Positions 33,198 to 43,364 of a stretch of DNA of 43,364 bases are shown one piece after another; the stretch's first letter is position 1; each line of letters opens with the position of its first letter. Both the position numbers and the translations under genes were made by a program. Location of the stretch: positions 1 to 43,364 of the forward strand of contig CAXMOO010000078.1 in assembly GCA_964195005.1 (NCBI GenBank). The letters run 5' to 3'. This DNA comes from an uncultured Gammaproteobacteria bacterium. GTDB taxonomy: Bacteria; Actinomycetota; Acidimicrobiia; Spongiisociales; SHLN01. The notes beneath the pieces were generated by a model. The model was given only the letters and a program-made list of their open reading frames with translations, made no database searches and had not been told where the DNA came from.

Positions 33198-33934
33198 GAG
33201 TCCAACACACTGTCGAGCCCGACCGTTACGCCGGCGAGGTCGGAAACCTTCCTGATAGCTACCAACACGCCCGGCAGGTAGGCAGTCCGATCGGTCACAT
33301 CGTGCCGAATGGAAAGCGTCTCGCCGGGTCTTCCCAAGATGACCTCCTGATGGGCCAGCAGCCCTGGAAGGCGTATTGCGTGGATGGGGACGCCCTCGAC
33401 CAACCCACCCCGGGCTCCCGTCACCAGCTCATTCGATTCCGTGGCCCGCTCCTGGGTCCCGGCAGCTCCGACCCGGCCGGCGGTGGCAATAGCCGTTCCG
33501 GACGGGGCGTCAACCTTCTTGTCATGATGCAACTCGATGATCTCGGCGGCATCGAAATGGCGGGCAGCCTGTTCGGCAAAACGCATTGCCAGCGCCGCCC
33601 CAATTGAAAAGTTGGGAACTACCAAGCAGTTGGGCGGACCATCGCCGAACAGGTCCCTGACCGCGCCGATCCTCTCTTCAGTGAAGCCCGAAGTGCCAAC
33701 CACCGAGTGGAGCCCGAGCCGCTGCCAGGCTTGCAGGTTGTCCATAACGGCATCTGGAGGGCAGAACTCCACCACCACCTCCGCCCCCGCTAGGCCTGCG
33801 CGATCTGCGATCGTCCCGTCCCTTCCCCTGGGGTCGTACCGGCCTGCCAACTCGAGGTCGGCGGCTGCTTCGACTGCGGCCCCGACGAGGCGGCCCATCC
33901 GCCCGGCCCCCCCGGAAACAACCACCCTCGTCAT
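33194..33934 (-). CDS. dapB: 4-hydroxy-tetrahydrodipicolinate reductase
   Basis: VVSGGAGRMG, EIIELHHDKKVDAPSGTA. Confidence 0.9.
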   Translation of the reverse strand: MTRVVVSGGAGRMGRLVGAAVEAAADLELAGRYDPRGRDGTIADRAGLAGAEVVVEFCPPDAVMDNLQAWQRLGLHSVVGTSGFTEERIGAVRDLFGDGPPNCLVVPNFSIGAALAMRFAEQAARHFDAAEIIELHHDKKVDAPSGTAIATAGRVGAAGTQERATESNELVTGARGGLVEGVPIHAIRLPGLLAHQEVILGRPGETLSIRHDVTDRTAYLPGVLVAIRKVSDLAGVTVGLDSVLDS

Positions 33935-35181
33935 GTGATAAAGAATTCGAGCTCGGACGCGGAGTTGGGCCCGGTCGCGCCGATCACGAAGGGACCGCCG
34001 AGGAACTCAATGGCTATCCCCCGGAGGTCCTCCAGTGTCACCGCATCGAACCGGGCCAGTGTCTCATCGAGGCTGAGGTGCGTGTCACCCGTGATTTCTT
34101 CGCGACCGAGGCGGATCATCCGGTTGTTGGGGTCCTCCTGGGTGAGTGCCAGGCTTCCCTGCACATGTCCCTTGGCACGATCGAGCTCTTCGGAAGTCAC
34201 ACCCTGACCTATGACATTGTTGAACTCGGTCTTGACCAATTCGAGAACCTGGTCGGTCTGGCTGGGCGTGGTGCCCACATAGACCCCGAACCCACCGGCG
34301 TCGGCGTAGGGGAACCGGAAGGTGTACACCCCGTATGCCAGGCCGCGCTGCTCACGGATTTCTCGGAATAGCCGCGAGGACATCCCGCCCCCCAGTATGT
34401 GGCTGAGGAGCCCGAAAGCGAACCGGCGGTCGTCACCCCGCACCAGCCCGAGACCCCCGATAACAAGATGAGTCTGTTCGGTCTCTCGATGGCGAATATT
34501 CACACGGGGGTCGACCGACGCCGGGGCATGGTCGTGAGTAGATGATCTCGACTCCCAGTCGCCGAAATGCTCCTCAACCAGCCGGACGACTTCGTTATGC
34601 GCGGCACTTCCGCTGACGGCCACGACGGTGGCGCCGGCGTGGTAACGGCGGCCCCAGAAGCCGTCGATGTCATCCCTGCTCATTTCGGTTATCGACTCTT
34701 TGGTCCCGAGGACCGGCCGCTCGAGTGCATGCCCGCGAAACAGGGCCTGGAAAAACTGCTCAAAAGCCACATCGGTGGGATCGTCCTCGTTCATGTTGAT
34801 CTCCTCCAGCACCACGTGCTTTTCAGAGTCGATCTCGTTCTGGCGAAACGCGGGACGCCGAACCATCTCGCCGAGGATCTCGAGCCCGAGCGGCAGATCG
34901 TCGTCACGCAGGCGGGCCCAGTAGCAAGTTTGCTCTTTGCTCGTAAAGGCGTTGGAGCGACCCCCCACTGCGTCGAAGGACTCGGCAATGTCTCGCGCCG
35001 ACAGGCGATCGGTGCCCTTGAAAAGGAGATGTTCGAGGAAGTGGGCCGCCCCGGCCTCGTTGGTCCTCTCATCCCGGGTCCCGCAATCGGCCCATACTCC
35101 CAGCGCCACCGATCGAACATCGGGCATTTCTTCGGTGATGACCCGCAGGCCGTTGGAAAGTGTTGTCAGTTCGTAGTACAT
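33931..35181 (-). CDS. M16 (pitrilysin/insulinase) family zinc peptidase
   Basis: HFLEHLLFKGT inverted zinc motif. Start set to ATG 35181 (MYYELTTLSNGLRV). Confidence 0.85.
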   Translation of the reverse strand: MYYELTTLSNGLRVITEEMPDVRSVALGVWADCGTRDERTNEAGAAHFLEHLLFKGTDRLSARDIAESFDAVGGRSNAFTSKEQTCYWARLRDDDLPLGLEILGEMVRRPAFRQNEIDSEKHVVLEEINMNEDDPTDVAFEQFFQALFRGHALERPVLGTKESITEMSRDDIDGFWGRRYHAGATVVAVSGSAAHNEVVRLVEEHFGDWESRSSTHDHAPASVDPRVNIRHRETEQTHLVIGGLGLVRGDDRRFAFGLLSHILGGGMSSRLFREIREQRGLAYGVYTFRFPYADAGGFGVYVGTTPSQTDQVLELVKTEFNNVIGQGVTSEELDRAKGHVQGSLALTQEDPNNRMIRLGREEITGDTHLSLDETLARFDAVTLEDLRGIAIEFLGGPFVIGATGPNSASELEFFIT

Positions 35182-37009: not shown

Positions 37010-37684
37010 TTGGTCCTTGAGTTCTTCCGACGTGGCTCCGAGAGCCGCCTCGAGCAGATAGAAAGCCAGATCGCCAGAATGTTGGCAGATGCTCGACATA
37101 GTTTCGATCTAGCCGCTAGTTCGCTCCTCGCCGGGGCGCAACCGTCGGCGGTCGGGGCAGACGTGCATGCCACCGACAAGAGAATCAACGCCACCGAGCG
37201 GGAGATCAGGCGCGAGCTGGTCGTTCATGTCAGTGTCCACCAAACCTCGGCCGACGTGCCGATGATCCTGGCGTACATGGCAGTCGCCAAGGATGTTGAG
37301 CGAATCGGCGACTACGCCAAGAACATTTATGACATTGCTTTCCAGGGAATCGATCTGTCGAACGCCGAGGATGTGGAGCAACTCACTTCCTACCGCGACC
37401 GTATATCTCTTCTAATCAGCCAAACTGCTCAAACTTTCCTCGATCGAGCCACAGACGACGCCCGCGAGTACATCAACGAGGGGGACAAACTGCTCGATGA
37501 GTTTGACAAGCGGATTGACGACCTCGCCGCATCAGACGCCCCTTCCACTTTCGGGGTGCCAAGGGCCCTGCTTTTTCGCTATATGAAGCGCATCACCGCC
37601 CACTTGATGAACGTTCTGTCGGCCCTCACGATGCCCCTCGACCAGCTCGCCTATTTCGACGAAGCCAAAGAGGACCGGGTTTAG
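37010..37684 (+). CDS. PhoU-domain regulatory protein
   Basis: Two PhoU-like helical repeats (DKRINATEREIRRE; ERIGDYAKNI). TTG start 6 nt after GAAGGAGG. Confidence 0.7.
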   Translation: MVLEFFRRGSESRLEQIESQIARMLADARHSFDLAASSLLAGAQPSAVGADVHATDKRINATEREIRRELVVHVSVHQTSADVPMILAYMAVAKDVERIGDYAKNIYDIAFQGIDLSNAEDVEQLTSYRDRISLLISQTAQTFLDRATDDAREYINEGDKLLDEFDKRIDDLAASDAPSTFGVPRALLFRYMKRITAHLMNVLSALTMPLDQLAYFDEAKEDRV

Positions 37685-37720
37685 GAAGCAATAGGCAAGA
37701 ATTCTGCTTCCTGCTATTCC
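37684..37720. repeat. Left inverted-repeat unit / convergent terminator hairpin (GGAAGCA-N14-TGCTTCC)
   Basis: The reverse complement of 37706-37720 equals 41255-41269 (15/15). The reverse complement of 37688-37710 matches 41286-41308 at 21/23. Confidence 0.7.
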
Positions 37721-38133
37721 ACGTCGGGCTTTCCTCTGAGCCGCTTCTTTGCGCTCTGGCGCCGCTTGTCGTCGATACGGGACTGCTGCGACGACTTCGA
37801 ACGCTTGGTGGGCACCCGGCGCCGCCTGTCCTGGAGGGCGTCGTCGAGCAGCTCAGCCAGACGTTTCCGTGCCGCCTGACGATTGCGCCATTGGGAGCGC
37901 GAGTCCCCGGCCGTTACTTTTACAACCCCGTCCCGAGCCCTGGTCCCCAAACGGGAAACCAATTTGGAGCGTATCTCCTCGCTTATCGCCCGGCTCGACG
38001 CCACATCCCACCGCAGCTCAGCCCTCGTTGCATTGCGATTGGCATGTTGGCCGCCGGGGCCTCCTGTAGTCGAGAAAGACCATTGCAGCTCATCTTGGGG
38101 GATGAGCAGGTGCCTTCCAACGGGTAGATCCAT
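37714..38133 (-). CDS. arfB: ArfB-like peptidyl-tRNA hydrolase (class I release-factor GGQ domain with basic C-terminal tail)
   Basis: TTGGPGGQHANRNATRAELRWDV (GGQ at 38047-38055) and a Lys/Arg-rich tail. Start set to ATG 38133, giving 139 aa, the usual ArfB size. Confidence 0.8.
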   Translation of the reverse strand: MDLPVGRHLLIPQDELQWSFSTTGGPGGQHANRNATRAELRWDVASSRAISEEIRSKLVSRLGTRARDGVVKVTAGDSRSQWRNRQAARKRLAELLDDALQDRRRRVPTKRSKSSQQSRIDDKRRQSAKKRLRGKPDVE

Positions 38134-38152
38134 GCGTCCACGGTAATGCGAG

Positions 38153-40270
38153 TTGACAGCCACCAGGCAGTATCGTCCACTGATGCGAGATCGCACCCAG
38201 ACCATCCTCGGCGAGATCCTGCCGCCGGAAGAACGTGCCATCGAATCGGTGGTAGCCCGGTATCAGAGGGTCGCCCCTGCCGTTACCCGGTTCGCCCGGA
38301 CGTTGGCCAAAAACGATGAGCTTTCAGTCCGGCTCGGATCCGAAGCAGCCAGCCGGCCGAACGAGGTTGTACTCGACCCGAGGCTTTTCCAGGCGGCTTT
38401 CAGTCGAAGCGCCCCGGTTACTCCCAGCGAGTGTGCTCTGGCCTCGGCCCTGCACGAGGTCGTCCATTTGGCAATCACCGATTTTGGAGAGAAACGATCT
38501 ATCCCTGAGGAGTGGCTGCCAGAAGACACCGAGGACTCCTCCGGGGACCCCGTCCCGCTCCTCGATGCCCTGTCGGCGACAGGCGGAGCACCGGCTGAGG
38601 CACTGTTCCTGGCTTTGGAGGACGCTCGTCAGGAGACGGCTCACCTCAGTGCATACCCCGGTGCCCGCTCGGTACTGGCTGATCTGTACCTGGCGGCCGT
38701 GCCGGACGCTTTCGTCACAGCCCCACCCCTGGGCCAGTTTTCGCTGGCCTGCTTCCTAATCGTGGGCGACTATGTCAAGCGCAACCGCCTCCAAAAGCAG
38801 GCTGAGCCCAATGTGGCGGCCGCGCTCAACGACGCCGTCCCGTTCCTCGACGCGGTAGTCGCCACCACCGACGTGTGGGAAGTCGCCGGATTGACGCTGC
38901 AACTGTTGCAGGTGGCCCGGCTACACGGGCTTGTTACCGACGTCTCTAACACCAAGGTGATCGGAGAGGCAGAAGCCACCCAGAAGGCCGAGCAAGACGC
39001 CATCGCCGAAGGAGTCGACCGGGTGCGCCTTACCACCCCCATCCTCCAAGACGTAGAGCTCTATGACCAGACTAAGGAGGCCACCGCCGGCGACGCCGAT
39101 ACCGCAGCCGACTCGGAAGCCGGGGGCGACCCCGCCACCGACCAGCTGATTCGTGTTTCCGAAGCACCGGTCGTCTATCCGGCGGCAGGCCAGGGTGGCA
39201 AACTCGTGGTCGGCCCGTTCCCCTACCGATTCGAGGCGTTTGCGGCCAGGGGACGAGAAGCGCTCGACGAAGCCGCCCGGGCCTGGGGAGTTGCCCAGCG
39301 TCATATCTCGGGTGAGCTCTGGCCCCTCTTCGTCGCCAATCAACGCCGCGGCCTCCGCTCGGGTTACGACGCCGGGGACCTTTCTCCATATGCCGCGTTG
39401 TTCCTGGGAGCCGGTCACTACCAGCGCATGTTCGAGCGGCGAGCTATTTCCAGCCGGCGCTCCTATGCAGTGAGCCTGCTCGTCGATGGATCCGCTTCGA
39501 TGCTGCAGGCGCGGCGTCTTCCCGGAGGGGGTCGAGCCCCCTGGGGAATGGCGGCGGCCACGCTCGGCGCCTGGACTCTGGCCCGTCTAGCGGATGAGCT
39601 TCAAATCGAGTTCGAAGTGGCTCTGTTCAACCGGGCATTTTCGGCTGCATTCGACGACACCGAGGCGACCTACTTGCAACGGATGCACGGAGCCACCGCC
39701 GGCTTGCGGAGGACACAGGGCAGCCATGCTGAGCGCCTCACCCGCACCGTCAATCATTACGTCCTCAAAGGCTTCGATCAGCGGTGGCGGGCAAGTGAAG
39801 ATGTCCTGGCCGGGCTTTTCTGGACCGCAGCCGAGCCGCGGGCATCTGCCACGCTGGCGACTCGCAACGCCGGGGAGGCTCCACCCGTCTCCATGTTCGA
39901 AAAAGCCGCCAACGTCGACGAGCTCAATGTGGCCTACGCGACTGCGCGGTTGCAATCCAGGCGAGCCACCGTGCCCATCATGGTGGTCCTGGCGGATGGT
40001 ATGACCCGGGGTTCCGTGGAGGCCCTGTCACAAACGGTCGCGCAGGCCGAGAAGGCGGGTACCACAGTGCTTGGCATTGGGATAGGCGACGGAACCGTGC
40101 AGACTGCCTATAGCCGCAATCAGGTGGTCGACCGACCCGATGCCCTCACCCGGGCCATGGTGGATGGTGTGCGATCCGGGCTGCGACGGAGCCTCGCCAT
40201 GTGGGGTGCAGACAGCTGGTGGGCTCGCTCCCACTGGTCGAATGAACCAGACTGGAGTGCTCATGGCTAA
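38153..40270 (+). CDS. CobT-family VWA (MIDAS) protein with N-terminal HExxH motif
   Basis: HEVVH at 38453-38467. MIDAS DGSAS at 39485-39499, then VVLADGMT. The C-terminal 260 aa parallels CobT_C as I recall it (LLVDGSASM, NHYVLKGF, NVDELNV, LGIGIG). Start codon uncertain (TTG 38153 or ATG 38183). Confidence 0.75.
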   Translation: MTATRQYRPLMRDRTQTILGEILPPEERAIESVVARYQRVAPAVTRFARTLAKNDELSVRLGSEAASRPNEVVLDPRLFQAAFSRSAPVTPSECALASALHEVVHLAITDFGEKRSIPEEWLPEDTEDSSGDPVPLLDALSATGGAPAEALFLALEDARQETAHLSAYPGARSVLADLYLAAVPDAFVTAPPLGQFSLACFLIVGDYVKRNRLQKQAEPNVAAALNDAVPFLDAVVATTDVWEVAGLTLQLLQVARLHGLVTDVSNTKVIGEAEATQKAEQDAIAEGVDRVRLTTPILQDVELYDQTKEATAGDADTAADSEAGGDPATDQLIRVSEAPVVYPAAGQGGKLVVGPFPYRFEAFAARGREALDEAARAWGVAQRHISGELWPLFVANQRRGLRSGYDAGDLSPYAALFLGAGHYQRMFERRAISSRRSYAVSLLVDGSASMLQARRLPGGGRAPWGMAAATLGAWTLARLADELQIEFEVALFNRAFSAAFDDTEATYLQRMHGATAGLRRTQGSHAERLTRTVNHYVLKGFDQRWRASEDVLAGLFWTAAEPRASATLATRNAGEAPPVSMFEKAANVDELNVAYATARLQSRRATVPIMVVLADGMTRGSVEALSQTVAQAEKAGTTVLGIGIGDGTVQTAYSRNQVVDRPDALTRAMVDGVRSGLRRSLAMWGADSWWARSHWSNEPDWSAHG

Positions 40271-41261
40271 AAACATCACATTCGAAGACCCCGCCGGCGA
40301 GGGAAAGCCGGTGGAGCTGAAGACCTTCACGGTCCCCAAGAGCTTGCCCGACTATGAGCAACGTGTGGGGAAGGTCCCCGAACCCGATCCTTTCTATATG
40401 GATCTCGGCATGCTCTACCAATTGGCTCGCCTCGAGAGAATCCGTCGCGACCACGCCGACGAACAAGTCCCACTTCATCTCGCGCTCAGAGGTCACATGG
40501 GCACAGGCAAGGACCATGACCTCGAGCAGTTTGCGGCATTGCTCAGGCTTCCGTATTACCGCATACCGTTGACGGGAGAGGTCCGCGACATCACATTGAT
40601 CGGATCGGTCAAACTCCATGGTGACGGCAAAGGAGGAACCGAGAGCCGCTGGGAAGACGGGGACATTACTCGAGCACTGCGCGGGACCGCCCTTATCAAC
40701 CTGTCGGAGCTCAACGCCGCCGGAGCCGAAACTCTGTTTGCCCTGCATGGCTTGCTCGACCGCTACCAGGCCGTGGACCTGCCCAGCGGAGAGACTGTGA
40801 GACTCCCCAAGGATACCCGCTTGTTCGGCACCATGAATCCCACCGACTTGCGCGACTACGCAGGCACCCAGACCCTCAACAAGGCCTTCGCCGACCGGTG
40901 GCTCATATGGGAAAAGGACTTCCCTAATTCAGATCAGCTGACCGGGATGATCAATCGGCGCTACCCGACCTTGGCCGAGTCTTTTGTTGAGGTCATCGCC
41001 CGACTGGCCGTCGAAGTCAACCAATCGTTCACAGCCTCCGACAGCCGCACCCGGGTCGAAACTCCGATGAGCTTGCGGACGGTGCTCGACCGGGTCCCGG
41101 CCGGCTTACGGATGTTCGCCGATGAAGACGATCCCCTGCGGCGCACTTGGGAAGAGTTCGTGCTCCCCCACGTCGATGCCTACGACCGGGACCACTACGA
41201 GACGGTGTGGAGCGCAGTGGCGCGCACCGGGCCGCCCGGGCCGCCGTACACAGAGGAATAG
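40263..41261 (+). CDS. CobS/MoxR-like AAA+ protein with non-canonical Walker A (GKD) and Walker B (SE)
   Basis: GHMGTGKDHDLEQFAALLRLP aligns by eye to CobS G-TGKSTHIEQIAARLNWP. ALINLSEL sits where hhhhDE is expected. Sensor-1 FGTMNP and Arg-finger region AFADRW. ATG 40263 overlaps the upstream stop by 8 nt. Confidence 0.75.
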   Translation: MAKNITFEDPAGEGKPVELKTFTVPKSLPDYEQRVGKVPEPDPFYMDLGMLYQLARLERIRRDHADEQVPLHLALRGHMGTGKDHDLEQFAALLRLPYYRIPLTGEVRDITLIGSVKLHGDGKGGTESRWEDGDITRALRGTALINLSELNAAGAETLFALHGLLDRYQAVDLPSGETVRLPKDTRLFGTMNPTDLRDYAGTQTLNKAFADRWLIWEKDFPNSDQLTGMINRRYPTLAESFVEVIARLAVEVNQSFTASDSRTRVETPMSLRTVLDRVPAGLRMFADEDDPLRRTWEEFVLPHVDAYDRDHYETVWSAVARTGPPGPPYTEE

Positions 41262-41308
41262 CAGGAAGCCACCAGTAGTCGGCAAGAAGCAGGATCCTTG
41301 CCTATTGC
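41255..41308. repeat. Right inverted-repeat unit, with a 21-nt insertion relative to the left unit
   Basis: ggaatagcaggaagc (41255-41269) plus gaagcaggatccttgcctattgc (41286-41308). GAAGC is duplicated on both sides of the inserted 16 nt. Confidence 0.7.
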
Positions 41309-41376
41309 CTATTGCCCTTGGTCAGCAGTCAGCAGTCAGCAGTCGGCAGTCGGCAGTCGGCAATCGGCAATCGGCA
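41298..41376 (+). repeat. Heptamer tandem array: (TTGCCTA)2 TTGCCCT, then (GTCAGCA)3 (GTCGGCA)3 (ATCGGCA)2
   Basis: Read directly. Units sit in strict 7-nt register and change stepwise by one base. The first three units are near reverse complements of the last ones. Confidence 0.85.
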
Positions 41377-41719
41377 GCAAGAACCTCCTTTCTGTGACAG
41401 TGGCCGAGTAGAAGGCCAAGCCACGCTGTGCCAATGCACCAGGCAGGTGATTCTTTTGGTGGCCTCGCTTGCGCCAATAGGCGCAGCTCGTCGCCGTGGT
41501 TGGTCCAGCAGTGTTACGCCATGGTCGGGGTTGAGCGTGTTTGTGTATTGCGCCGAAGATGCGCCGAAACACTGAACGCAGCGCACGCCCCGTGAGGAGG
41601 AATACGGATCATCCTGTTCTGAGTTCGAGGGGCGCAAGCCACCGAGCTCAGACCCGGACCTCGATTTATGGTGTGCGTGTTTGGTGAGACGGACGGAGGC
41701 TTTTTGCACGGTCGGCTGA

Positions 41720-43364
41720 TCAGCGTTGGGTTGGTGTCCTTTCGAGTTGAGAGCCGTCGCCGATCGCGAAAATCGCCTGGGAGGTGGAGGCGACGATGAG
41801 GGTGCCGTCGGGGGCGACGGCGATGGAGGCGTGTAGCTCGAAGGCGTCGTGGATTTGTTGTCCGTCGGCGGTGCAGTTGGCCGGCGGGGCGAGTTCGCTT
41901 GGGTCGGCCGGCACTATTCGCCAGACGCTCTCTCCGCTGGTGGCGTCGAAGGCGTGAACGGCGCCGTCGGGGCGCGGAAGTACGACCAGGTCGCCGACGA
42001 TTATGGGTGACGCCCATTGGCGTTCACAGCGGATTCCGGTCTCAGTCGCCCAAGCAGCCTGGCCGTCGTGGCTGTTGATGGCCTGGACGCCTGTTGAGAG
42101 CGAGCTTGCGAACACGAGAGCGTCGCCGTGTCGGGCAGGGGAGTTTCGCAGGTTGGCGAAGCCGTCCGCGATGCTGCTGGGGTCTGACCCTCGCCATTCG
42201 ATCCTGCCGACATACCTGTCGAGTCCGACCAGGGCCGGCCCATCCGGTCCGCCTTCGACAAGGTAGGTGATGATCACTTTGTCGTCTGCCACTGTTGGTG
42301 CCGCGAAGACCATGATTGGGACCGTTGTGTTGGGCTCCTCGGAAACCCCAACAACTGGTTCGAATTCGATGAGGGTGCGCCACATCTCGAACCCGTCGAT
42401 AGTGAACGCGGCGGCCTCGCCGTGGTCACTGACCGCGTATACCAGTCGCCCGTCGGAGGCGGCCCCTCCTCGGATGGCGCCATCGAATTGAGCGTGCCAT
42501 TTTTCCTTGCCGCCGAGATCGAGAGCCCAGAGGACGCCGGATGCGTCGCCGACCACGACCAGGTCTTCAACGATGAGGGGGTTGGTGAATACGGGCGCGC
42601 CGGTCGTGAACCTCCAAATCTCGGCACCGGTCTTGAGATCGAGACCCCACACGGTTCCTTCATCGCCGGTCGCGATCACGATGTCACCGCTGGCAGCCAA
42701 ACCGTTCACATCGTTGGCGGCAGGGAAGTACCAGCGTCGCTTACCAGTTTGGAGATCGAGGGCGTACACACCATCCGCATCATCACTGGCGCTACGCCGG
42801 CCACCGGCGCTGCCGACGACCACAAGGTCATTCGCGACGATTGGGCTGTTCAGCCATCCCGATATTCCTACTTCCGCCCGCCACCGTCTCCTGGGTTCGA
42901 GGATCGGATCTGCCTGAGAGCACCCCGACCGGGTGATGTCACCCTGAAAGGTGACCCAATCGGCCCCGGCGGCGACGCATTCGGGTAAGAGTCTCGATCC
43001 GGTTGGCGCTTCGAGCGCCTGCAGGAAGGCGGCTGCGATTGGGCCGGCCGTGGAACCCCCGGATGCGCCCCCTTCGACGCTGATCGCGAACGCCAAATCA
43101 TCGGCGAAGCCGACGAACCAAGCCACCGAATCTGTGCTTTCCGCAGTGGCGATCTCGGCGGTTCCAGTCTTTCCGGCAACATCCACACCCTCCACTGCCG
43201 CAGCCTGACCCGTGCCCCTCTCGACCACGGCCTGCATCATGGCTTGCAGGTTGGCGACAACAGTCGGATCGAGCCTCTCAGACGCATCGTTTTCGGTTCC
43301 TGCGATCAGCTTCGGTGGGTGAAACACTCCGGAGGCGGCTGTGGCAGCCACGCTGGCCATGTTG
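41720..43364 (-). CDS. Penicillin-binding protein transpeptidase C-terminal part fused to a PQQ-like beta-propeller; N-terminus outside the window
   Basis: KTG motif in VAGKTGTAEIA...VAWFVGFA, then repeated G.VYALDL.TGK..W / VWGLDLKTGAEIW / LWALDL propeller blades. The frame is open to the window edge. Confidence 0.75.
   Translation of the reverse strand, partial: NMASVAATAASGVFHPPKLIAGTENDASERLDPTVVANLQAMMQAVVERGTGQAAAVEGVDVAGKTGTAEIATAESTDSVAWFVGFADDLAFAISVEGGASGGSTAGPIAAAFLQALEAPTGSRLLPECVAAGADWVTFQGDITRSGCSQADPILEPRRRWRAEVGISGWLNSPIVANDLVVVGSAGGRRSASDDADGVYALDLQTGKRRWYFPAANDVNGLAASGDIVIATGDEGTVWGLDLKTGAEIWRFTTGAPVFTNPLIVEDLVVVGDASGVLWALDLGGKEKWHAQFDGAIRGGAASDGRLVYAVSDHGEAAAFTIDGFEMWRTLIEFEPVVGVSEEPNTTVPIMVFAAPTVADDKVIITYLVEGGPDGPALVGLDRYVGRIEWRGSDPSSIADGFANLRNSPARHGDALVFASSLSTGVQAINSHDGQAAWATETGIRCERQWASPIIVGDLVVLPRPDGAVHAFDATSGESVWRIVPADPSELAPPANCTADGQQIHDAFELHASIAVAPDGTLIVASTSQAIFAIGDGSQLERTPTQR

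Follow-up and report, generated by a model that had tools for sequence, protein, structure and literature searches.

We analyzed a 43,364-nt stretch of DNA (hereafter the window) from an uncultured Gammaproteobacteria bacterium (GCA_964195005.1, contig CAXMOO010000078.1), which GTDB places in Acidimicrobiia; Spongiisociales; SHLN01. We focused on three of its genes: arfB on the minus strand and, divergent from it on the plus strand, the genes of a CobT-like adaptor with a VWA domain and of a CobS-like AAA+ ATPase. The adaptor and the ATPase form a pair that is a previously unannotated member of the CobS/CobT (MoxR–VWA) kind of motor and adaptor, and we consider it moderately likely that this pair is a housekeeping, CobST-style machine that remodels a client other than CobN. 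An earlier note on this DNA had read the three genes, with inverted repeats on either side, as a candidate novel module that either serves translation quality control or constitutes an accessory cassette complete in itself. Its sequence details all held up, its interpretation in part: the three genes are neither a novel ribosome-rescue module nor a cassette.

The ATPase gene (40263-41261, plus strand) encodes 332 amino acids from an ATG start, and the protein belongs to the AAA_5/MoxR clade. As the earlier note had seen, its start overlaps the adaptor stop (40268-40270) by 8 nt, and the two genes are a translationally coupled operon. The protein scored 48.8 bits against Pfam AAA_5 (cutoff 22) and 42.4 bits against the CobS equivalog TIGR01650, below its threshold of 558.55; the homologue from a distant marine branch, described below, scored 66.8 bits against the latter model. 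When a profile of the ATPase was compared with the PDB, midasin came first with several domains summed, followed by CobS (5.5e-16) and then by NorQ and CbbQ (1e-9 to 1e-6). The same profile matched the phage CobS family phrog_249 at 1e-24. We rejected midasin as the closest relative because its higher score is a sum over several AAA_5 domains. By profile homology, then, the ATPase is a CobS-type AAA+ motor.

It is the ATPase site, and not the HExxH motif of the adaptor, that sets this family apart. Walker A reads GHMGTGKD (40491-40514, plus strand), with D84 in place of the magnesium-binding Ser/Thr, and Walker B reads INLSELN (40695-40715, plus strand), with S148 in place of Asp and the catalytic E149 kept, so that neither the canonical Walker A GK[ST] nor the canonical Walker B hhhhDE is present. 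These alterations, already pointed out in the earlier note, proved to be a property of the family, with L087 11953-12939 as an example: GKD and SE did not vary among 26 homologues or in the marine branch, in which the ATPase is 56% identical. Invariant alongside E149 are K83, N192, and R212; the residues kept include the sensor-1 asparagine and the arginine of ADRW. The phage CobS-like ATPases and midasin domains that we aligned retain GKT and DE (LDELN in midasin), and in the solved CobS Walker A spans G71-S78 and Walker B holds D141-E142 (10.64898/2026.07.21.739949). The aspartate in Walker A and the serine in Walker B may be a compensating exchange of magnesium ligands that leaves the enzyme active. 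The invariant exchange amounts to a natural experiment on magnesium binding in AAA+ proteins.

The longest open reading frame (ORF) of the adaptor runs from a TTG (38153-40270) and has the 705 aa given in the earlier note. The real start, in our reading, is the ATG at 38183, which gives a protein of 695 aa (38183-40270, plus strand). We chose this start because of the lengths of the homologues, whose gene calls span 691-725 aa, are mostly about 700 aa, and begin with MR(D/x)R, and because of a conserved -10 element 6-8 nt upstream. The protein consists of an N domain (residues 1-305), an acidic linker of low model confidence (~303-340), a shaft-like segment, and a VWA domain that has a MIDAS (metal-ion-dependent adhesion site).

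Direct Pfam, NCBIfam, and PDB sequence searches with the adaptor gave nothing usable (in Pfam, no match at E values up to 10 other than VWA at 0.019), and profile-profile comparison was needed. A profile search of 1.84 billion cluster representatives returned a tight adaptor family on its own and then, across a wide gap, proteins of Pfam CobT and CobT_C. With hhalign, the C-terminal half matched 25 CobT-like proteins with 99.9% probability (E 2e-34) over ~250 columns that span the pre-MIDAS segment and the VWA domain, and the N domain matched CobT-like proteins with 96% probability (E 4e-9). A profile of CobT-family proteins matched the solved CobT at 4e-71, the PHROG CobT families matched the adaptor at 4e-11 to 1e-5, and P0251, a distant member of the adaptor family, barely passed the CobT_C model (21.2 bits, cutoff 21). 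Judged by these profiles, the adaptor is a divergent CobT-type protein, homologous in both halves. The CobT-like and CobS-like assignment in the earlier note is therefore right at the superfamily level, since the adaptor shows the succession of parts of the solved CobT and both proteins are homologous at the profile level.

The adaptor carries two invariant signature motifs. In the N domain, HEVVH (38453-38467, plus strand; H91, E92, and H95) is joined by EDARQE (38618-38635, plus strand), whose last residue, E151, completes a gluzincin-type motif. All four residues are invariant, also in the marine branch, in which the adaptor is 28% identical, and the two segments align with HEvaH…NiiEDvrIE of CobT-like proteins. 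The HExxH motif, listed earlier as a departure from CobT, is thus real and fixed but not distinctive, as 38 of 42 full-length CobT-like relatives have it as well. The second signature is the MIDAS of the VWA domain, made up of DGSAS (39485-39499, plus strand; D435, S437, and S439) and of DGMTRG within LADGMTRGS (39995-40012, plus strand), which supplies D605; the motif is complete and all four residues are invariant. The best-conserved segment of the protein, SGELWPLFVANQRRGLRSGYDAGDLSP…ERR (39308-39442, plus strand; residues 376-420), lies just before the MIDAS and aligns with the pre-MIDAS stretch of CobT-family proteins and of the solved CobT, the region that holds the shaft. An AlphaFold2 (AF2) model of the N domain (residues 1-305) was confident, with a predicted local distance difference test (pLDDT) of 85.9, and its top 21 matches in BFVD were all viral CobT-like or VWFA proteins, with template modeling (TM) scores up to 0.56.

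To survey the pair, we scanned one genome per GTDB species; 477 genomes matched, and we retrieved 80 loci. All 80 came from metagenome assemblies, most of them labelled Acidimicrobiia or Actinomycetota. For five loci (L014, L026, L028, L075, and L080) the bin label is instead Gammaproteobacteria, Kiloniellaceae, Kiloniellales, or Acidobacteria, probably as a result of binning or labelling errors in public assemblies. Wherever the flank sufficed, the ATPase gene lay downstream of the VWA gene. The pair occupied the same position in all retrieved loci, within a recA–ftsK–dapA–dapB backbone whose common order is RNase J–dapA–thioredoxin…dapB–M16–[variable]–(arfB)–VWA–ATPase–(HAD)–LOG–MDMPI–BtpA. 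The ATPase was 72-84% identical over the 80 loci. In 35 loci, the VWA protein had a median identity to its window counterpart of 59.7%, the ATPase of 74.2%, the M16 peptidase of 59.8%, and DapB of 58.4%. Since the medians of the pair match or exceed those of M16 and DapB, the pair evolves like housekeeping genes or more slowly. We conclude that it is a vertically inherited core gene pair across Acidimicrobiia.

The distant branch comes from marine single-cell genomes with a G+C content of 32.5%, in which the gene order is recA–cinA–…–ftsK–dapA–dapB / VWA–ATPase / …MDMPI–BtpA. From G+C content and gene layout, we infer that these genomes belong to Ca. Actinomarinales. Actinomarinales genomes are ~1.1 Mb with a coding density of 97%, and the authors who described them argued that a gene retained across the whole lineage is an essential one (PMC7771536). 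The apparent retention of the pair in ~1.1-Mb streamlined marine genomes argues for a core cellular client and against a role specific to B12 or to phages.

The operon appears to have its own promoter. A -10-like hexamer, TATCGT (38171-38176, plus strand), lies 6 nt before the adaptor ATG; in other clades the element takes the form TGnGAcAAT, the majority form, 8 nt before the start. We aligned 73 loci with at least 60 nt upstream, together with the window, anchoring them on the start codon, and found the element conserved in loci both with and without arfB, from which a promoter of the pair's own can be inferred. The adaptor-ATPase mRNA is probably leaderless, to judge from this layout. We rejected TTGACA at 38153-38158 as a -35 element because 12 nt is too near to the -10 hexamer, and a scan for consensus sigma-70 promoters did not find one. 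Neither arfB nor the adaptor gene has a Shine-Dalgarno sequence, and in each a -10-like hexamer precedes the start by 6-8 nt.

Taken together with the solved CobS–CobT assembly, these features outline how the pair might work. By analogy, the ATPase would form a hexameric ring, the N domain of the adaptor would dock on the small subdomain of the ATPase, and the pre-MIDAS segment would be the shaft that enters the pore of the ring. A client, held on the MIDAS face of the VWA domain, would be remodeled or loaded by ATP hydrolysis, and the invariant HExxH…E of the N domain may also cut it, as has been proposed for a jumbo-phage pair (PMC7824862). The operon would run from its own promoter near the start codon, with an mRNA that is probably leaderless. 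The identity of the client would reveal a use of the CobST motor outside tetrapyrrole metalation, and would explain what a conserved “hypothetical protein,” plentiful in metagenomes from ocean and sediment, does.

Several points weigh against this proposal. Pfam CobT (PF06213) and CobT_C (PF11775) do not match the window adaptor. The AF2 model of the full-length adaptor (pLDDT 60) is poor in the VWA half, and a Foldseek comparison of the N-domain model with the PDB gave no match (best E 0.6, TM below 0.25). The Walker exchange could mean altered or lost ATPase activity, and the adjacency of arfB in half of the loci could reflect a functional link. There is also no conserved neighbor that would indicate a client. 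As for the structure searches themselves, the Foldseek matches of the full-length model were noise and were discarded, and an assignment of the N domain to a solved peptidase was dropped for want of a PDB fold match; the metallopeptidase reading consequently rests on the motif and on the M48C comparison made in the CobT preprint.

Of the 54 loci in which the flank downstream of the pair exceeds 3 kb, 52 have a LOG-family gene (Lysine_decarbox) there, on the strand of the ATPase gene and followed by MDMPI_N/DinB and BtpA genes (for example, L003 13816-14859 and L004 13160-14230). It was not found in the 2 kb downstream in the window or within 10 kb in the marine branch, and we set it aside as an operon partner or client because it is missing at these two places. 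Downstream of the window ATPase there is instead, on the minus strand, an ORF (41720-43360) that joins the C-terminal part of a penicillin-binding transpeptidase domain to a PQQ/BamB-like β-propeller. This ORF reaches nearly to the window end, and its true N-terminus may lie upstream, beyond the window.

The possibility that the pair works with the product of arfB was the strongest of the alternatives. The arfB gene (37714-38133, minus strand) encodes 139 aa; residues 27-29 are GGQ, and the C-terminal tail, RRRRVPTKRSKSSQQSRIDDKRRQSAKKRLRGK, is basic. It has no codon-recognition domain, its length agrees with the ~140 aa expected, and it matches both NCBIfam NF006718, the ArfB equivalog (127.1 bits, cutoff 100), and Pfam RF-1 (E 1.9e-15, 57 bits, cutoff 35). 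The identification of a 139-aa ArfB-type GGQ protein on the minus strand was therefore correct, and the product is a bona fide, standard single-component ribosome-rescue peptidyl-tRNA hydrolase. A -10-like hexamer read from the sequence, TACCGT (38140-38145, minus strand), lies 6 nt before its ATG; the TAcCGT-N6-ATG layout recurs in related loci and suggests that the arfB mRNA is leaderless. The gap between arfB and the adaptor ATG at 38183 is 49 nt.

If arfB and the pair were partners, they would act together in translation quality control or ribosome remodeling, the pair being a midasin-like AAA+/MIDAS machine with stalled ribosomes, assembly intermediates, or released nascent chains as targets. 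To follow the linkage, we placed 74 informative loci on a neighbor-joining tree of the VWA protein. In 34 of the 74, arfB was divergent and 49-240 nt from the pair; in 6 it was displaced by 0.9-2.7 kb; and in the remaining 34, mostly in one large clade that lacks it as a whole, it was not found within up to 10 kb. Nor was it found in three streamlined marine loci that we fetched separately. The co-occurrence of the three genes, which the earlier note had proposed to test, holds for the VWA and ATPase genes, always paired given enough flank, but not for arfB. Adjacency tracks clades, and the arrangement is probably old and ancestral, having been lost repeatedly without visible effect on the pair.

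Several observations speak for a partnership. The 34 loci with a close arfB and the 6 with a displaced one span clades with only ~57% VWA identity, the -10 elements of arfB and the adaptor stand back to back, and the top PDB sequence matches are to midasin, at 9e-28 for its AAA domains and at E 0.023 for its MIDAS domain. In addition, a neighborhood like the present one does not appear in the release-factor neighborhood survey of Burroughs and Aravind, in which the sole ArfB association is a pseudouridine synthase (PMC6514570). On the other side, the pair is equally conserved in the 34 loci and the three marine loci in which arfB was not found. The midasin score is inflated by six AAA_5 domains and the MIDAS match is weak, and characterized ArfB systems act alone (PMC6514570). 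The adjacency is also what the background would lead one to expect: the whole region is syntenic, and where the upstream flank exceeds 3 kb, in 51 loci, dapB was kept in ~41 and M16 in ~45, so that arfB is less faithfully kept in the neighborhood than either. It also diverges faster, with a median identity to the window protein of 50%, compared with 58% and 74% for the two proteins of the pair. For these reasons, we regard the adjacency of arfB as background synteny, with a functional tie a minority chance on the evidence of gene order and divergence, and the partnership as a whole as unlikely. Its boldest form is more doubtful still. There the pair would be an ancient, class-wide, possibly essential bacterial counterpart of midasin-type AAA+/MIDAS remodelers, with ribosomes or rescued nascent chains as targets shared with ArfB. 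The released product would be trimmed by its zincin domain, while swapped magnesium ligands (the Walker A aspartate and the Walker B serine) would sustain its ATPase.

A second alternative, in line with the mundane explanation in the earlier note, is a true aerobic cobaltochelatase, of which the pair would be the motor and adaptor and CobN, encoded elsewhere, the partner, supplying B12 for NrdJ and other enzymes. The genes cobS and cobT are often found apart from cobN. CobS and CobT are the nearest characterized single-domain relatives of the pair, the domain order of the adaptor equals that of the solved CobT part for part, and the organism uses adenosylcobalamin, given the NrdJ in the window (TIGR02504, 681.6 bits, cutoff 400). 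Other evidence speaks against it. The ATPase reaches 42 bits (67 in the marine branch) against the 558-bit CobS cutoff, its Walker residues are unlike those of CobS, and the adaptor escapes both Pfam CobT models. Consistent with the earlier note, no cob gene was found among the tested window ORFs, although cobN was not searched for genome-wide, and none was seen in the flanks whose genes carry Pfam assignments. An Rfam scan of the 43-kb window returned neither a cobalamin riboswitch nor any other RNA family. The pair is kept in the 32%-GC streamlined marine genomes, and the vitamin dependence of streamlined marine Actinomarinales has been described as like that of other streamlined plankton (PMC7771536). 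It is widespread, whereas within the Acidimicrobiia order UBA5794 B12 genes are reported to be enriched only in sponge-associated lineages (PMC12008989). Given the sub-equivalog scores, the missing cob context, and the retention in streamlined genomes, CobN is an unlikely client. The client is probably another protein, and we hold a role in cobaltochelatase to be improbable.

The remaining alternative turned on the inverted repeats that the earlier note had seen around the three genes. These are real and non-random in the window: a 15-nt inverted repeat (37706-37720 / 41255-41269) is 100% complementary and a 27-nt one (37688-37714 / 41282-41308) is 89% complementary, where chance would yield 0.03 and 0.00 matches, respectively. 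The left copy is a 3' hairpin element (37685-37720) at the 29-nt gap between the convergent phoU and arfB genes. Its stem pairs GGAAGCA with TGCTTCC, and it is a collapsed, single-copy version of arrays of the heptamers CAGGAAG and CTATTGC. The right element, after the ATPase stop (41255-41316), reads GGAATAGCAGGAAGC, then GCAAGAAGCAGGATCCTTGCCTATTGC, with CTATTGC repeated. Outward from the stop codon, both ends read GGAATAG CAGGAAG… to …CTTGC CTATTGC. Only the divergence of the two outer genes makes these copies face one another.

These elements change quickly and occur elsewhere. L005, a 97%-identical relative, has (CAGGAAG)x5-6 and (CTATTGC)x6 around the same loop at the arfB end; at the ATPase end it has GGAATAG (CAGTCGG)x2, the right arm being missing beyond its first 10 nt. 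More distant relatives carry other heptamer arrays or unrelated sequence at both sites. A metagenome scan for the hairpin core found one further occurrence, on a contig without a nearby arfB, VWA, or ATPase gene and flanked again by GCAATAG, GCTTCCT, and GCCGACT repeats. The supposed bracket is therefore a 3' hairpin element, dispersed and fast-changing, that happens to be present twice; it is part of a hypervariable heptamer family that is not specific to these genes, and its two copies are not cassette borders.

A mobile or defense cassette of the vWA–MoxR conflict kind with terminal inverted repeats could still draw on the repeats themselves, on the proposal that vWA–MoxR sets are conflict systems (PMC7159879), and on the phages that carry CobS/CobT-like pairs. 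However, the repeat arm is missing in L005, the repeat family stands at another site without the three genes, and the pair shows no third component, effector domain, or rapid evolution. The gene order here is vWA then ATPase, compared with VMAP–MoxR–vWA in the VMAP class (PMC7159879). A PADLOC defense scan returned zero matches, and the annotated flanks showed neither a transposase nor an integrase. With its repeats dispersed, its G+C content typical of the window (0.59-0.66 in the three-gene region, 0.60-0.66 over the window), zero PADLOC matches, and a place on the chromosome that did not vary among the retrieved loci, the cassette can be dismissed as very improbable.

Heptamer arrays are remarkably frequent in the intergenic sequence of these Acidimicrobiia genomes. 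In the window, the right element is followed by a tandem array of eight heptamers (41321-41377; GTCAGCA x3, GTCGGCA x3, and ATCGGCA x2); the same unit occurs in two copies in L005 and also in the unrelated contig L091. In 1.2 Mb of related loci, arrays of period 7 were the second commonest tandem repeat (39 of 171); periods 4, 5, 8, 10, and 11 accounted for 1, 5, 5, 1, and 3 arrays. Thirty of the 39 lay outside crude ORF calls, though ~84% of the sequence was called coding, and 100 of the 111 arrays with a period that is a multiple of three lay inside ORFs. The arrays often come as two adjacent ones around a short loop, directly after stop codons, and copy number varies between 97%-identical relatives (1 vs 5-6). 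Array sites include window 41298-41377, L005 38-128, L007 13085-13164, L010 1701-1731, L014 10698-10769, L052 6265-6352, L067 9894-9936, and L091 2000-2060. We know of no earlier description of intergenic heptamer arrays in Acidimicrobiia. They may act as variable terminators or as mRNA-stabilizing hairpins. Terminator-like sites were no commoner than in shuffled sequence, and folding of the repeat regions, with z-scores of only -0.2 to -1.1, showed hairpins of ordinary stability for their composition.

The window also holds recA, a major facilitator superfamily (MFS) transporter gene, nrdJ, cinA, a miaB-like gene, BCKDH genes, ftsK, RNase J, dapA, dapB, an M16 peptidase gene, a phosphate transporter gene, and phoU. 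The M16 peptidase (33931-35181, minus strand), beside dapB, has sub-threshold matches to NCBIfam YfmH/YfmF, families associated with the 5-aminopentanol modification of EF-P, at ~100 bits with cutoffs of 250-285.

Finally, we compared the pair with known systems. The closest characterized one is CobS–CobT, for which structures of CobST and CobSTN are available (PDB 9ujv, 9uka, and related; 10.64898/2026.07.21.739949). In the solved CobT, the small subdomain of CobS is the docking site of an M48C-like N domain, ~90 residues of disordered linker follow, a shaft enters the CobS ring, and the MIDAS VWA domain faces CobN (10.64898/2026.07.21.739949). Like CobS–CobT, the present pair is a two-gene AAA_5 motor and adaptor with the same order of parts in the adaptor: a related N domain, a long acidic linker, a pre-MIDAS segment that aligns with the shaft-bearing region of CobT, and a VWA domain of the CobT_C type in which the MIDAS is complete. 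Unlike CobS–CobT, it scores far under the equivalog thresholds, was found without cob context (cobN not having been searched genome-wide), has the order T then S with an overlap, carries GKD and SE in place of GKS and DE, and is present class-wide, streamlined genomes included.

Other MoxR–VWA pairs are more distant. NorQ–NorD, CbbQ–CbbO, and their like share an AAA_5 hexamer and a VWA/MIDAS adaptor engaged in client remodeling or metallation, but they stand further from our ATPase than CobS does and differ in gene order, adaptor architecture, and N domain, and no NorB, Rubisco, or other client gene lies near the present pair. The vWA–MoxR ternary systems (Kaur et al. 2020, PMC7159879) likewise combine a MoxR-clade ATPase and a vWA protein in Actinobacteria. 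The present pair differs from them in that it has no VMAP, iSTAND, FtsH, or β-propeller component; its neighbors are housekeeping genes, its architecture is fixed and free of effector domains, it evolves slowly, and its gene order and fixed position are other than theirs. Midasin/Rea1, the top PDB sequence match for both the adaptor and the ATPase, shares the combination of AAA_5 and MIDAS and the signature RR…R.Y.V.L.VD.S.SM before the MIDAS. It is, however, one very large eukaryotic polypeptide that carries six AAA domains; the likeness is at the level of the clade and gives no evidence of a ribosomal client for the present pair.

Viral CobS/CobT-like pairs also place an HExxH N domain fused to a VWA domain beside an AAA_5 ATPase, and they too are orphans without cobN. 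The jumbo-phage MoxR and metallopeptidase–vWA pair has the same architecture (Iyer et al. 2021, PMC7824862) and has been proposed to act as a chaperone and cochaperone, possibly with proteolytic processing (PMC7824862). Our N-domain model matched the viral CobT-like proteins of Gordonia phages, a Brevibacterium phage, and Haloarcula viruses with TM scores of 0.4-0.56. Adjacent AAA_5 and CobT-like genes were seen in actinobacteriophages (82 Gordonia phage records), Haloarcula viruses, and Roseobacter and Rhizobium phages, in both gene orders and with no cobN annotated in the retrieved 4-5 kb flanks (for example, L090 3347-6807, L085 1827-5645, and L086 2052-5894). Unlike these, the present pair is chromosomal, vertically inherited, and slow-evolving; its ATPase shares only 22-28% identity with the viral ATPases, and the phage ATPases examined keep the canonical Walker residues. 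Orphan CobS/CobT-like pairs without CobN thus recur, in phages and now throughout a whole bacterial class.

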